Below are positions 23,738 through 30,823 of a stretch of DNA of 64,000 nt, piece after piece (the stretch's first letter is position 1; every line of letters begins with the position of its first letter). A program made the translations under genes and the position numbers. Location of the stretch: positions 207,988 to 271,987 of the forward strand of contig JAHJYC010000004.1 in the NCBI GenBank assembly GCA_018826905.1. Reading direction: 5' to 3'. Origin of the DNA: Patescibacteria group bacterium (lineage in GTDB: Bacteria > Patescibacteriota > Minisyncoccia > Phycocordibacterales > Phycocordibacteraceae). The notes beneath the pieces are model-generated. The model had not been told where the DNA came from and did not search any database. It saw nothing but the letters and a program-made list of their open reading frames with translations.

Positions 23738-24958
23738 TTAGTGCCCGTACCCTTCTATGATAGCTCCGTCATATATCTCCTTATTCTCTTCACCAGATAC
23801 CTGCAACACTCCCCACGCACCCCGGTCTACCCGCGCTAACGCATGGTCAACGAAGATGTAGTTTCCTGGGACTTGAGTGTCGAATTCGACAACAGTCGCT
23901 CCGCCTGCCGGAACGAGTGTTGTTTGGACATTGGTGTGAGGCTCGGATGTGAGTGAGGCTTCAGGGAAGACTCGATCAAACACTTCGCCAATCAGGTGAA
24001 ACGAGGAGATGAGATTTACACCTCCGTTGCCCATGTAGATACGCGCAGTCTCTCCTGTTTTCATCTGCATCTTGTCCATGAGACCGTTCGTCTTCCCGTT
24101 AAAGACGATGTAGGTCGGCTGACCCGCGAGCATCGCCTCTGCATCAAAGAGTTGGATACCCTTGCGGCCCATGCCGCCTGAGGCATAGAACTCGCCCTGC
24201 ATAACGTAATATTCATGATCCACTGCCGGCAGACCCTCCTCAGGCTCGACGAGAATGAGACCGTACATGCCATGGGTCATATGGTTCGCGACGTTCGGAG
24301 TGGCGCAGTGATAGACGAAGAGACCGGGATGAAGTGCCTTGAACGTCACGGTTGCGGACTCTCCCGGAGCGACCATGGTAGAGACTGCGCCACCACCAGG
24401 ACCAGTGACGGCATGCAGGTCGATGTTGTGATAATGCAGACTTGTCGGATCGTTATGTAGTGTCAGCTCCACCGTATCCCCTTCCCGCACCCGAATCATT
24501 GGTCCGGGTATCTGTCCATCGAAGGTCCAATAGTTTATGAATACTCCCGGTGCCATTTCGGCTATAACTTCTTTCGTTGTGAGTTCCACCTTCACGAGCT
24601 CAGGTTCTGTGCGCGTAACAGGCACCGGCACGTCGTTTGGATCGCGAGCAATGTTCGCAACGCGTTCAAACTTGTCAAAGTTCCCGAAGAACTTAAGGAC
24701 GCTTCCGAGAGACAGTACCGGCCCCTCGGCAGGACCATAGGTCTTGAGGAAGAATGGATATTCGAATCCACGCGGCAGTCCATGTGGCGCATAGAAGAAT
24801 ATCGACACACCGAGGAATACAGCAACGAGTGTAACAGTAAGCCATGTCGAGTGAAGCTTTCGCAGCACGAGGTATAGAAAGACTCCTGCGAAGATGAACG
24901 CTATGAAGAGACCGAACCATTCGACGAGTACTGTGCGGAGCAGATAAATAATTTCCAT
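23738..24958 (-). CDS. nirK: Copper-containing nitrite reductase NirK, with an N-terminal transmembrane anchor
   Basis: Type-1 and type-2 copper ligand motifs (LHYHNIDLHAVTGPGGGA and FVYHCATPNVANHMTHGMYGLILVEP); two cupredoxin domains; an N-terminal hydrophobic helix of about 50 aa. Confidence 0.85.
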   Translation of the reverse strand: MEIIYLLRTVLVEWFGLFIAFIFAGVFLYLVLRKLHSTWLTVTLVAVFLGVSIFFYAPHGLPRGFEYPFFLKTYGPAEGPVLSLGSVLKFFGNFDKFERVANIARDPNDVPVPVTRTEPELVKVELTTKEVIAEMAPGVFINYWTFDGQIPGPMIRVREGDTVELTLHNDPTSLHYHNIDLHAVTGPGGGAVSTMVAPGESATVTFKALHPGLFVYHCATPNVANHMTHGMYGLILVEPEEGLPAVDHEYYVMQGEFYASGGMGRKGIQLFDAEAMLAGQPTYIVFNGKTNGLMDKMQMKTGETARIYMGNGGVNLISSFHLIGEVFDRVFPEASLTSEPHTNVQTTLVPAGGATVVEFDTQVPGNYIFVDHALARVDRGAWGVLQVSGEENKEIYDGAIIEGYGH

Positions 24959-24967
24959 GAGAAAGGA

Positions 24968-25312
24968 TTAGTAGGGTATCTTGCACTCATCAAAGCAGTG
25001 CGCATCGCGATTCAGGCTATAGATGCGTTCACGACCTGAATCAATACTTGCAACTGCATCGACTGAACGTAATACGTTCAGGTGATGGGTAATGGTTGGC
25101 TGTTGTAGCTCGAGCTCTGCGGTCAGCTCAGTAACGGTCATTCCCTCCTTGGCCTTTCCAAGAAGGCAGACGAGCTGATACCGACTACGGCTCCCTACCA
25201 CCTTGAAGCAATCGGGGCAAAGCTCCTCTTCAGCACTATCTACCCACGACGGACGCTTGTACGTGCGCTCCGCAGCTACTTTCTTAGTTGTCCCCACCTT
25301 TTTCTTATTCAT
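24968..25312 (-). CDS. ArsR/SmtB-family transcriptional regulator
   Basis: Winged helix-turn-helix (MTVTELTAELELQQPTITHHLNVLRSVDAV); Cys pairs (CPDC, CFDEC) suggest metal sensing. Confidence 0.8.
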   Translation of the reverse strand: MNKKKVGTTKKVAAERTYKRPSWVDSAEEELCPDCFKVVGSRSRYQLVCLLGKAKEGMTVTELTAELELQQPTITHHLNVLRSVDAVASIDSGRERIYSLNRDAHCFDECKIPY

Positions 25313-25377
25313 AGACAGTCATCTATTGATACACTAATAAACCCATAGACACTTATCAATATATCATCATCTTCGCT

Positions 25378-27663
25378 ATGCCACGAACAGAATCCCCAGT
25401 TATAGAATCAGTCATTAAGAGAGACGGAACGATTGTCTCGTTCGAGCGAACGAAGATAGAGAACGCAATCGCAAAAGCGCTCGAGGCAACCGGCGAAGGA
25501 TCGCGTGAGCAATCCAAAGTCATCGCAGAATCGGTTGTAAACTCACTGAGCAACACGCTACGAGCAGACGCTCGGACAATTCCCTCGGTGGAAGAGGTGC
25601 AGGACAGCGTTGAGACCGAACTCATGAAGGCAGGGTTCGGCGCGACTGCCAAGGCATACATTTTGTATCGCGTGCACCACGCCAAGTTGCGGGAAGCTTC
25701 CTCTGAGGTGTCCCCTTCCATACGAGCCATAGTCGCTGAAAGCAAGAAGTATTTTTCCAATCAACTTTCTGAGTTCGTCTATTACAGCACGTACTCCCGC
25801 TGGCTCGATGATGCGGGACGCCGTGAGGCATGGGTTGAGACGGTTAACCGCTATGTAGCATTCATGCGCGAGAATCTAGGAGACACGCTCCTAGAAAACG
25901 AGTACGCAGAGATACGCGAGAACATGCTAGCAATGAAAGCAATGGGCTCAATGCGTCTCCTATGGAGCGCAGGAGCACCTGCACGCGCATCGAACGTCTG
26001 CGTGTACAATTGCTCGTTCATCGCACCAGCCACTTGGCAGGATTTTGCTGAGATTATGTATATATCCATGTGCGGCACCGGCGTCGGCTTCTCTGTCGAA
26101 CGTCAGACCGTTAAGATGTTGCCACGTATTGAACCGCAGACAGGAGAAATACTTGCTGAATATATAATAGAAGATTGCAAAGAAGGCTGGGCGGATGCAC
26201 TTGCCCATGGACTCACTGCCTGGTCTTCTGGAAAGGACGTTTCGTTCAACTACGAATATATCCGACCGCGCGGCGCAAGACTGCGTACTATGGGAGGGCG
26301 GGCGTCGGGCCCTGAGCCGCTCAGGAACCTGCTCGACTTCGCTCGCGAGCGCATGCTCGAGCGCCAGGGTCGACACCTCTCGACGCTCGACGTACATGAC
26401 CTTGTCTGCAAGATAGGCGAGATTGTCGTTGCGGGTGGAGTGCGAAGAAGTGCCTTGATTTCCCTCTCCGATCTCGACGATATGGAGATGCGCGAGGCAA
26501 AGAACGGCCAGTTCTATGTTACCCAGCCGCAACGTGCCATGGCGAACAATTCCGCCGTCTATAACGAGAAGCCAAGCGCGATTGCGTTCATGGAGGAGTG
26601 GCTGAACCTCGCACGAAGCGGGTCTGGAGAACGCGGCATTTTTAATCGCGGAAGTCTCAAGGGGCAGCTGCCCGAGCGTCGGTGGCCTCTTTTTGAGAAA
26701 GATGCTGCGCAAAGCGGCACCAATCCATGCGGCGAGATAATTTTGAAATCAAAACAGTTCTGCAATCTAAGCGAGGTCGTCGTGCGCCCAGAGGACACGC
26801 TAGAAACTCTAAAAGAGAAAGTGCGTATTGCGACCATACTTGGAACCTACCAAGCATCTTTGACCTCTTTCCCCTATCTCTCACCTGAGTGGAAGAAGAA
26901 CTGCGAGGAAGAGGCTCTGCTGGGAGTTTCCATGACCGGCCAGTGGGATAACCTCGCTGTACGCGATTCTGCTGCACAGAGTGCTCTTAAGGAAGTCGCG
27001 CTCGAAACTAACAGAATCTATGCCAAGCGGTTCGGCATCAATCCGTCCACTGCAATAACCGCTGTAAAACCGTCAGGGAACGGTTCGCAGCTCTTTGATT
27101 GTGCATCAGGCATGCATCCACGACATGCAAAATATTATCTGCGTCGTGTCCGGATAGAAGGACACAATCCGCTCAAGCGGCTTCTTGAGGACGCTGGGGT
27201 TCCCTGCGTGCCGGAAGTTGGGCAGACGAAAGATACTGCAACAACCTGGGTGCTTGAGTTCCCGATTAAAGCTCCAGAAGACGCCGCTGTGAAGGGTGAC
27301 CACACAGCACTCGACCAGCTCGAGTACTGGAAGATGGTGAAGGAGAACTATTGCGAGCACAATCCGTCGGTTACGGTAACGATCGCTGACGACGAGTGGC
27401 TCGCGGTCGGCAATTGGGTATACGCGCACTGGGATATTGTTGGCGGTCTCTCATTCCTTCCGAAAAGCGAACACGTGTACCAGCTCGCTCCCTATGAGGA
27501 AATCAGCAAGGAACGGTATCTTGAGCTTGCATCCACATTCCCTGACATAGACTTCGCACGGTTAGTCCAGTACGAAACGAGCGATACGACCACCGGAGCG
27601 AAGGAACTCGCTTGCGTATCGGGAACATGCGAGGTTGACGTGCTTACTGCACCCACATCATAA
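25378..27663 (+). CDS. nrdJ: Adenosylcobalamin-dependent ribonucleotide reductase (class II, NrdJ/RTPR-like) with an N-terminal ATP-cone
   Basis: ATP-cone (VIKRDGTIVSFERTKIENAIAKA); class II thiyl-radical loop (NPCGEIILKS); C-terminal Cys pair (ACVSGTC) as in the L. leichmannii RTPR tail. Confidence 0.85.
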   Translation: MPRTESPVIESVIKRDGTIVSFERTKIENAIAKALEATGEGSREQSKVIAESVVNSLSNTLRADARTIPSVEEVQDSVETELMKAGFGATAKAYILYRVHHAKLREASSEVSPSIRAIVAESKKYFSNQLSEFVYYSTYSRWLDDAGRREAWVETVNRYVAFMRENLGDTLLENEYAEIRENMLAMKAMGSMRLLWSAGAPARASNVCVYNCSFIAPATWQDFAEIMYISMCGTGVGFSVERQTVKMLPRIEPQTGEILAEYIIEDCKEGWADALAHGLTAWSSGKDVSFNYEYIRPRGARLRTMGGRASGPEPLRNLLDFARERMLERQGRHLSTLDVHDLVCKIGEIVVAGGVRRSALISLSDLDDMEMREAKNGQFYVTQPQRAMANNSAVYNEKPSAIAFMEEWLNLARSGSGERGIFNRGSLKGQLPERRWPLFEKDAAQSGTNPCGEIILKSKQFCNLSEVVVRPEDTLETLKEKVRIATILGTYQASLTSFPYLSPEWKKNCEEEALLGVSMTGQWDNLAVRDSAAQSALKEVALETNRIYAKRFGINPSTAITAVKPSGNGSQLFDCASGMHPRHAKYYLRRVRIEGHNPLKRLLEDAGVPCVPEVGQTKDTATTWVLEFPIKAPEDAAVKGDHTALDQLEYWKMVKENYCEHNPSVTVTIADDEWLAVGNWVYAHWDIVGGLSFLPKSEHVYQLAPYEEISKERYLELASTFPDIDFARLVQYETSDTTTGAKELACVSGTCEVDVLTAPTS

Positions 27664-27668
27664 GCACC

Positions 27669-28214
27669 ATGAAAAATCCTTCCCTGTCGCTCACCACTCA
27701 GATCCTGCTCTTGCTCGTGCTCCTCATGATCGGCATCGGTTCTCGGTTCCTGCCGCATCCGCCATCAGCCACGGCACTGACTGCCGTCATGTTTGCCAGT
27801 GCCCTGTACCTACGACCCCACCTAACCATTGCGCTTACTTTGTTGCTTCTGTTGTGGTCAGACATGACACTGGGGAGCTACGAACTACCAGTGATGGCTT
27901 CGGTATATGGATCGTTCCTGATAATCGCAGGCTTCGGGATGTGGTTCGCGCGCACGAAGAACATCGGTGGACGAGTACTCATGCTCGCGAGCTCTTCGGT
28001 CCTGTTCTTTCTCATAACAAATGCAGCTATCTGGTATTTCACCCCTTGGTACGCAAAGGACATAAGCGGACTCATGCTGTCCTACTCGCTCGGCCTCCCG
28101 TTCTTGAAGAACATGCTCCTTGCTGACTTCCTCTACACGCCGGCTTTGATCGCCGCACTTGCGCTCGTCTTTAGTTCGAGTCCAGCACCTAAAACTTCCT
28201 TGTATGTATCGTAA
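27669..28214 (+). CDS. Small multi-pass membrane protein (possible ECF-type S-component or vitamin-uptake protein)
   Basis: 181 aa with five or six transmembrane helices; it starts 5 nt after nrdJ and overlaps the next gene. The function is inferred from genomic context only. Confidence 0.35.
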   Translation: MKNPSLSLTTQILLLLVLLMIGIGSRFLPHPPSATALTAVMFASALYLRPHLTIALTLLLLLWSDMTLGSYELPVMASVYGSFLIIAGFGMWFARTKNIGGRVLMLASSSVLFFLITNAAIWYFTPWYAKDISGLMLSYSLGLPFLKNMLLADFLYTPALIAALALVFSSSPAPKTSLYVS

Positions 28215-28644
28215 ATGGACACTCATTGTTGCGGGCATACTTGCTATTGCATCCACTGCACTCATACTCTTTTCTTCTTATGAGCGAGCAGTTGAGTTGT
28301 CGCCATCTCAAGACGTATCGGAAGAAGTCTCTAATGAAATACCGCTGCGTCAGGAATCAGTAGCTGAAGAGGTTGCTCCAGCGATACCCGCTCGCACACA
28401 TGTTCTTATTGCGGATACGGCTGGCACCGTGGAGTCCTCAATGCAGAAAGAGTATGAAAGAGGGTCGCTCGTGTATACGAGCACTTCATATCCGACACTC
28501 GGATCATTCTTGGAGTCTATTAATGGACTGAAGAACGAGAATGGTTTCTATTGGATGCTCTACATAAACGGATCATCCGCTTCTGTTGGAATGTCCCAAG
28601 CGTATGTGGTACCTGGCGATCTAATCGAATGGCGCTATGAATAA
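28204..28644 (+). CDS. Membrane-anchored DUF4430-like (transcobalamin beta-domain-like) protein
   Basis: N-terminal transmembrane segment; C-terminal YWMLYINGSSASVGMSQAYVVPGDLIEWRYE pattern reminiscent of DUF4430. The ATG at 28204 is chosen. Confidence 0.45.
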   Translation: MYRKWTLIVAGILAIASTALILFSSYERAVELSPSQDVSEEVSNEIPLRQESVAEEVAPAIPARTHVLIADTAGTVESSMQKEYERGSLVYTSTSYPTLGSFLESINGLKNENGFYWMLYINGSSASVGMSQAYVVPGDLIEWRYE

Positions 28645-30622
28645 GTACCTTCTTCTGGCCCTATTTCTGGTTCTTGCACTCGCAAGTCCACAAAGCGTCC
28701 GCGCTGACGAGACAGCTTCGACTACGCCCGAAGTCCTTGCAACAACGACCCCTATCGTTGAGCTGCCCGAACCCGTAACTGAGCCAGTAATTGCTACTAC
28801 GACTGGTGTGGTAGCAACATCTACAGAATTCGTAACAGCCAGTACGACCGATGCAGTAGCAATATCGACTGAGCCTACCCCGACCGCACTGCCTTCAGTA
28901 GATATCGCGCTCACGGTCGCAACCGGGGAGCACATTCTCTTTGCGGATTCTATTACCGTAACCGCCTGCGCGCCCCGTCCTGATATGGAGCCTGCTGTCA
29001 GCGGATACTGTGCACTTGAGCAATCTGGCGCTCCTATGGCGTGGACATGGTATGGAAACGACGCTTTTGTCGATTCAATTAGTGGAGTCGGGAACGACTA
29101 TGAGGGCAATGCATACTGGAATTGGTTCTCGGATCTCTCTTATGGCATGACCTCTCTCAATGCACATACACTACATGCAGGCGAGTCCCTAATCGTCAGC
29201 ATCGGGCGCTTTCCTCTACGCCTCCAGACCACCTCCGATTCAGAACAGGCAGGGAACGAGATCATTATTACGGTAGAGCAGTTTAGTTTTGACAGTACCT
29301 ACAGTCCTATATGGGAGCCTGCAGCAAGCAGTACGATAGTCATACATGACACTCTCTACGAAACTACAGGAGACGGTACGTTGTCTTATAATCTTCCTGC
29401 CTCAGACTCAATAGAAATCCACGCGCGCAAGGAAGGCTACCTTGATGCAACTCCCCTGACCGTACGTATCACTGAGGCACCAGAATCCGACACAGGCAGC
29501 AGCTCAAATCCTGGCCCGGTCCCAAAGCCAGCCGATGCTGTTGCTGCTGCAGCGAGCTTCCTTCTTGAGTACCAACATGCAGATGGGTCGTTTGGAACTT
29601 CCCTTTTGTCTGACTGGGCTGCACTCGCATTCAAGAGTGCGAACATGTCTACTAGAACATTGAAAGAATATCTTGAAGGCGGACCAGGCTCTCTCAAAAC
29701 AGCTACTGACTTCGAGCGACGAGCCATGGCACTCTCCGCACTCAGAATCAATCCCGTTCAGAAAGTCAGCGAAGTTCTGAATCGGTTTGATGGCACACAG
29801 ATCGGAGATCCGTCTCTTTGGAATGACGACATCTTCGGACTTATTGCGCTTCGGGCTGGCGGATACGATGAGTCTGACATAGTGATTAGAAGTGTTGCCG
29901 CATCGCTTATCGCCGTCCAGAAAAGCGACGGTTCGTGGGGAGGCGTCGATCTTACTGCTGCCTCTATACAAGCACTTGTGCCTATCTCTTCGCTTCCTAG
30001 CGCCGAGTCTGCACTTGCAAAAGCACGAGAATATCTCGTATCCCGCCAGCAACCGGATGGGTGTTTCGGGAATAGCTTCGCGACAAGCTGGAGCATCATG
30101 GCAATTGAAGCAATTGGGGAGTCTCCAAATACATGGACCATGACTGGTGGCGCGACACCGCTATCCTGTCTCCGTGCGCTTCAGTCTCCTGACGGAGGAT
30201 TTGAGGCAGGAGCGAGCGAAGACACAAGGATTTGGGCGACTGCTTACGCCCTACCAGCACTTACAGGCAAGACGTGGGATTCCTTGCTTATTCGTTATCC
30301 AAAGGCGCAGAGTATAGACACGCCTCCCATTAATAATTCACATGCAACATCGACCGATGAGGTGCTGCCGCCAGAAGACACGACACTTCCTATAGCCGTC
30401 CCCACACCAATCGAACTGCCCATAATTTCCGAAATCGTTTCAGAACCTTTTATCGCAAAAATAGAGGAGGCTTCACCAATACTCACAAACCGCAGACTTG
30501 CTGCATCTGCAGGATCTGCCTTGGCAGATACCGGACTTCCTGCTGAACAGCGTTCCAACGACTCGGGTCTATGGGTATCGATTATGCGTTTCTTAATGTC
30601 GTTGTTTGGGTTCCTCTTTTAA
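28637..30622 (+). CDS. Large surface protein: signal peptide, a DUF4430-like region, prenyltransferase-type alpha/alpha-toroid repeats, and a C-terminal hydrophobic anchor
   Basis: Repeated Q..DGSFG / SDGSWGG / QPDGCFG / SPDGGFE motifs of the prenyltransferase/terpene-cyclase repeat fold; overlaps the previous gene by 8 nt. Confidence 0.55.
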   Translation: MNKYLLLALFLVLALASPQSVRADETASTTPEVLATTTPIVELPEPVTEPVIATTTGVVATSTEFVTASTTDAVAISTEPTPTALPSVDIALTVATGEHILFADSITVTACAPRPDMEPAVSGYCALEQSGAPMAWTWYGNDAFVDSISGVGNDYEGNAYWNWFSDLSYGMTSLNAHTLHAGESLIVSIGRFPLRLQTTSDSEQAGNEIIITVEQFSFDSTYSPIWEPAASSTIVIHDTLYETTGDGTLSYNLPASDSIEIHARKEGYLDATPLTVRITEAPESDTGSSSNPGPVPKPADAVAAAASFLLEYQHADGSFGTSLLSDWAALAFKSANMSTRTLKEYLEGGPGSLKTATDFERRAMALSALRINPVQKVSEVLNRFDGTQIGDPSLWNDDIFGLIALRAGGYDESDIVIRSVAASLIAVQKSDGSWGGVDLTAASIQALVPISSLPSAESALAKAREYLVSRQQPDGCFGNSFATSWSIMAIEAIGESPNTWTMTGGATPLSCLRALQSPDGGFEAGASEDTRIWATAYALPALTGKTWDSLLIRYPKAQSIDTPPINNSHATSTDEVLPPEDTTLPIAVPTPIELPIISEIVSEPFIAKIEEASPILTNRRLAASAGSALADTGLPAEQRSNDSGLWVSIMRFLMSLFGFLF

Positions 30623-30664
30623 GAGATCTTCGTTAAGGCTTCCAGTGGTCTGAGAGGCTCACAT

Positions 30665-30690
30665 AAAAGACGCTCTTTTGAGCGTCTTTT
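30665..30690. terminator. Bidirectional intrinsic terminator
   Basis: AAAAGACGCTC-tttt-GAGCGTCTTTT. Confidence 0.6.
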
Positions 30691-30823
30691 ACTGGCCTTG
30701 GACCTATCGGTTGCGATACTTCCCTTCGGCACTTTTGATGTCTGGCAGTCTGGAGAACAGACTGTCCAAACGCGTCTCCGTCATTCTAGAGCCGTGGTAT
30801 GAAATACAAATCCAACAAAACTT

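Follow-up and report, generated by a model that had tools for sequence, protein, structure and literature searches.

Why should a gene for a vitamin B12-dependent enzyme be followed so closely by three genes for membrane and surface proteins? The question arises at positions 25378-30622 of a 64,000-nucleotide stretch of Patescibacteria DNA (the window), where four open reading frames (ORFs), nrdJ, ORF2, ORF3, and ORF4, lie on the plus strand. An earlier note on this DNA had read them as an operon coupling a class II ribonucleotide reductase (RNR) to B12 scavenging. All four ORFs are where it placed them, and the public gene calls for a Patescibacteria MAG (GCA_018826595.1, JAHJYZ010000001.1) give the identical four genes. 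The gap between the nrdJ stop codon and the ORF2 ATG is 5 nt, and ORF3 and ORF4 overlap by 8 nt (ATGAATAA), both within the 8 nt that had been claimed as the limit for every junction; ORF2 and ORF3, however, overlap by 11 nt (ATGTATCGTAA) if ORF3 starts at 28204, as in the public gene call. Downstream, at 30664-30691 on the plus strand, a hairpin with a 12-bp stem and a U-run (-25.5 kcal/mol; z = -5.67; none of 200 shuffles as stable) terminates the operon. The tight packing and single terminator indicate that nrdJ and the three downstream genes are one transcription unit. Because six species-level relatives have the same four genes in the same order, the most distant ones with an ORF4 identity of only 44 to 50%, the order is not due to chance.

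Judged by its sequence, the nrdJ product (25378-27663, plus strand; 761 amino acids [aa]) is a class II, adenosylcobalamin-dependent RNR of the RTPR type with an N-terminal ATP-cone. Pfam finds ATP-cone (2.5e-22) and RNR_Alpha (2.7e-11), the translation shows an NPCGE motif and a C-terminal CxxxC, and the closest solved structure is the RTPR of L. leichmannii (1l1l; E = 1.9e-43). The RNR-II_ins_dom match (24.7 bits; Pfam cut-off, 27) and the TIGR02505 RTPR match (264.9 bits; equivalog cut-off, 340) are below threshold. As had been claimed, no genes for BtuB/BtuFCD or cobalamin synthesis were found in the window, and neither was an ECF module; these checks covered the last ~6 kb by ABC motifs only and the rest also by Pfam. 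The window has no PduO gene either. No riboswitch in the window matched Rfam at the gathering score, and a search of 24900-25500 at E values up to 10 gave only noise.

ORF3 (28204-28644, plus strand; 146 aa) starts with a hydrophobic membrane anchor, continues with a linker, and ends in a DUF4430 domain, i.e., an SLBB domain like the transcobalamin beta-domain. It scores 44.6 bits against PF14478 (DUF4430; cut-off, 23.8), which bears out its description as a membrane-anchored DUF4430-like protein. When its family profile (A3) was compared with the PDB, only the beta-domains of transcobalamin, intrinsic factor, and haptocorrin were matched (E = 0.006 to 0.14).

ORF4 (28637-30622, plus strand) encodes a 661-aa surface protein, the domain bounds of which were taken from an AF2 model (pLDDT 81). 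The order is signal peptide, disordered linker, SLBB domain, beta-sandwich, alpha6/alpha6 toroid, disordered linker, and C-terminal membrane helix; all its homologues, without exception, are from Patescibacteria. The SLBB domain (residues 88-190; 28898-29206, plus strand) is a DUF4430-like beta-grasp domain with an invariant cysteine pair, C111 and C125. Its Pfam DUF4430 match is sub-threshold (E = 0.067), but a profile-profile comparison with the ORF3 family (hhalign; 95.4% probability, E = 2e-8) confirms the internal DUF4430-like segment that had been proposed, and the homologues P0037, P0046, and P0052 exceed the DUF4430 cut-off. Thus, both ORF3 and ORF4, the latter in its first folded domain, have transcobalamin-type beta-grasp (DUF4430/SLBB) domains, and ORF3 is an extra, paralogous beta-grasp protein. 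Next comes a domain that is all beta in the model (residues 192-279; 29210-29473, plus strand), presumably an Ig-like spacer; homologues of ~840 to 1010 aa have a second copy of residues ~85-280, which hold the SLBB and all-beta domains.

The toroid (residues 300-550; 29534-30286, plus strand) has 12 helices in the model, as expected for the alpha/alpha-toroid predicted earlier, although the Prenyltrans match in Pfam, like those to SQHop_cyclase_C and Cobalamin_bind, is below cut-off. Near the C terminus, a hydrophobic helix (residues 645-660; 30569-30616, plus strand), which we presume to be a membrane tether from the model and the sequence, is preceded by ~80 residues that are disordered according to model secondary structure and pLDDT. 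Toroids of this type make up the other half of eukaryotic cobalamin carriers. Like transcobalamin, intrinsic factor, and haptocorrin (2bb5, 2pmv, 4kki), ORF4 combines an alpha6/alpha6 barrel with a DUF4430 beta-domain, and the binding mode proposed is also theirs, in which the ligand is held between both domains. Unlike these carriers, ORF4 has the reverse domain order with an extra beta-sandwich in between, is membrane tethered rather than soluble, is joined by a separate additional beta-domain protein (ORF3), and is not part of receptor-mediated endocytosis; its sequence similarity to the eukaryotic cobalamin-binding family is marginal (PF01122, 18.3 bits; cut-off, 25). The earlier note had each half of the carrier fold encoded by one of two adjacent genes; both kinds are indeed present, but ORF4 alone has beta-grasp domain and toroid. 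ORF4 might instead be a surface enzyme or adhesin for glycans, terpenoids, or host molecules, with the proximity of nrdJ incidental. We regard this as most improbable: ORF4 lacks a DxDD motif and has a single barrel; the model shows an exported, tethered protein; a transcobalamin-type beta-grasp domain is part of it, and another nearly always precedes it; homologues exceed the Pfam cut-off for PF01122; and cobalamin riboswitches control the module in related loci.

The last point comes from a survey of the genomic context of 78 species-level Patescibacteria loci with a toroid gene. Of the 78 loci, 63 have a DUF4430 gene on the same strand ≤300 bp from the toroid gene, 41 have an S-like (CbrT-like) membrane gene within 3 kb, and at least 9 have a gene for the adenosyltransferase PduO (PF01923, 144.8 bits). 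The earlier note had pointed to conservation of the nrdJ linkage as informative; nrdJ lies within 3 kb in 23 loci (29%), among which at least four arrangements occur. In none of the 78 was an ECF ATPase or T component found up to ~3.8 kb from the toroid gene. Forty-four loci, picked for their roomy upstream gaps, were scanned for cobalamin-clan riboswitches, and 23 had one at or above the Rfam gathering score, immediately upstream of the module and in its orientation, a proportion (52%) that is biased upward by the choice of loci. Outside these module-upstream sites, there were no other cobalamin-clan riboswitches in the 728 kb of the 44 loci.

These partners bear on the possibility that the module imports not B12 but heme or a different tetrapyrrole, which is what has been proposed for Lactobacillus sakei Lsa1836-1840, a system in which the transcobalamin alpha-like and beta-like parts are separate proteins beside an ECF transporter (10.1101/864751). 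That preprint ties heme uptake to the homologous operon and presents a docking of heme to a model of the alpha/beta pair, and a reviewer of Burroughs et al. (PMC1796856) cautioned that SLBB proteins might have diverse ligands. However, the partners found in the survey (cobalamin riboswitches, nrdJ, and PduO) are specific to B12, and the neighbourhood clusters contain no recurrent heme-related gene, so we consider heme import very unlikely.

How would a captured corrinoid cross the membrane? ORF2 (27669-28214, plus strand; 181 aa) belongs to Pfam DUF6580 (E = 5.1e-31), and its confident AF2 model (pLDDT 91) has the six helices that had been claimed for this small membrane protein. In Foldseek its top match was BtuM with hydroxycobalamin (8ovv; TM 0.63/0.65 over 180 columns), at an E value of only 9e-3, followed by the ECF S-components ThiT, PanT, FolT, and RibU; ORF2 thus shows the S-component fold with which a comparison had been suggested. 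The DUF6580 family profile had a sole match among 177,635 distinct PDB sequences, CbrT (6fnp_A; E = 7.2e-5), which is the cobalamin S-component of ECF-CbrT. The similarity between ORF2 and CbrT is confined to the first ~80 residues (the N-terminal half) and is of modest significance. In 13 loci, a membrane protein of PF07155, CbrT's own Pfam family, is in ORF2's place; the profile of this substitute likewise matches only CbrT in the PDB, an alignment of both families has E = 4.7e-5, and their members occupy the same place in the loci and never co-occur. By its model and these matches, ORF2 is folded like an ECF S-component and is a remote homologue of CbrT, and we propose it as a candidate carrier of corrinoids across the membrane.

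It could also be that the surface proteins capture B12 while import goes through another system elsewhere in the genome, ORF2 being not a transporter but a docking or assembly factor, or the carrier of another B12-related molecule, e.g., a lower-ligand base. Such a role would fit the S-like gene being near the toroid gene in just 41 of 78 loci, the partial similarity to CbrT, the lack of an ATPase module nearby, and the fact that the BtuM binding residues are not conserved in ORF2. ORF2 has no cysteines, its family has no conserved Cys column, and sequence similarity to BtuM is not detectable. We nevertheless think a nontransporting ORF2 unlikely, because its whole-protein fold is that of a vitamin S-component and its top match is a B12 carrier, because DUF6580 and CbrT-type PF07155 proteins interchange at one place, and because 21 of the 23 nrdJ-linked loci have one or the other.

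The operon is therefore likely to be a corrinoid (vitamin B12) capture-and-uptake module, with predicted binding, that is cotranscribed with the enzyme that consumes the cofactor. The B12-scavenging reading of the earlier note gains support from PF14478 in ORF3, the fold of ORF2, and the conserved nrdJ linkage, and more strongly from the exclusive match of the DUF6580 profile to CbrT and from the riboswitches upstream of related loci. In the mechanism that we propose, ORF4 would be exported and held by its C-terminal helix, with the long disordered linkers keeping it off the surface. The corrinoid would be clamped, as in transcobalamin, between the ORF4 toroid and a beta-grasp domain, either ORF4's own or that of the membrane-anchored ORF3, and then handed to ORF2, which would bind it near the outer face and carry it across, presumably by S-component toppling. 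Energy for ORF2 might come from an ECF ATPase module that is shared and has its genes elsewhere, or ORF2 might need no partner and rely on facilitated diffusion, the mechanism put forward for BtuM. Once in the cytoplasm, the corrinoid would act in its adenosylcobalamin form on behalf of NrdJ and so support dNTP synthesis. Cotranscription with nrdJ may match B12 supply to demand in the present lineage; in about half of the scanned related loci, a B12 riboswitch would instead turn the capture genes off.

The nrdJ-cbrS-cbrT-pduO cluster and ECF-CbrT of L. delbrueckii are reportedly a subject of Rodionov et al. 2009 as well. L. delbrueckii is a B12 auxotroph, and ECF-CbrT is its cobalamin transporter (Santos et al. 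2018, PMC5997447). The present operon resembles that cluster in that one or more small DUF4430 genes and a gene for a six-helix S-component-type protein come after an RTPR-type nrdJ in the same orientation, that its host is presumably B12 auxotrophic, and that several Patescibacteria loci also have PduO; loci with cbrT-like genes have the order nrdJ-DUF4430-DUF4430-S-component-PduO, with the DUF4430 genes in the cbrS position. It differs in that ORF2 is in DUF6580 whereas CbrT is in PF07155/PF12822, the S-component comes first, the 661-aa tethered SLBB-plus-toroid protein is added, PduO is missing from the window, and no ECF module is near the Patescibacteria loci in the neighbourhoods examined.

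Surface SLBB-plus-toroid B12 scavengers with a second paralogous SLBB protein were predicted by Burroughs, Balaji, Iyer, and Aravind in 2007 (PMC1796856); they were described from Firmicutes and from some archaea, where their operons include CbiO/CbiQ-type components. As described there, these proteins share with ours a secreted or anchored SLBB and toroid with the toroid C-terminal (the "Bacillus" order), the second paralogous SLBB protein in the operon, hosts without B12 synthesis, and predicted B12 scavenging. The present system differs in its Patescibacteria host, the lack of adjacent CbiO/CbiQ, the DUF6580 membrane partner, and a C-terminal helix in place of an LPXTG anchor; nrdJ linkage and riboswitch control are outside the description given in the sections drawn on here.

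BtuM of Thiobacillus denitrificans is a solitary S-component-like B12 transporter with an invariant, essential cobalt ligand, Cys80; its gene colocalizes with an adenosyltransferase gene, and it is found in Gram-negative bacteria alongside BtuB (PMC6072759). ORF2 is similarly small and six-helixed, has BtuM as its best structural match, and has no ECF module encoded nearby, and in some Patescibacteria loci PduO likewise accompanies the module; unlike BtuM, ORF2 has no Cys80 equivalent. The Bacteroides surface B12-capture lipoproteins BtuG, BtuH (DUF4465), and BtuJ (PMC8941943, PMC10404256, PMC13398666) are similar by analogy only, as high-affinity surface binders that feed a membrane transporter from riboswitch-controlled B12 loci. 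Going by their descriptions, they have unrelated folds (beta-propeller and DUF4465), and, unlike the present proteins, they are outer-membrane lipoproteins paired with the TonB-dependent BtuB. Thus, the idea of surface B12 scavengers is not categorically new (Burroughs et al. 2007; the L. delbrueckii cluster). What is new is that the system is found in Patescibacteria (here in a bacterium with a tiny genome), with DUF6580 as the proposed carrier, a large toroid protein that is tethered, and no ECF module nearby.

Downstream of the operon, the terminator hairpin sits between convergent genes. Upstream, nrdJ shares a 65-nt intergenic region (25313-25377), which is too short for a cobalamin riboswitch and is presumably the promoter region, with a divergent gene (24968-25312, minus strand) encoding a Cys-rich ArsR-family HTH protein (Pfam HTH_5, HTH_20); a consensus sigma-70 scan of the region found no site. 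The ArsR-family gene is a candidate regulator of the shared region, although its tie to the operon is uncertain. A minus-strand ArsR gene beside a plus-strand nrdJ was seen again in 10 loci.

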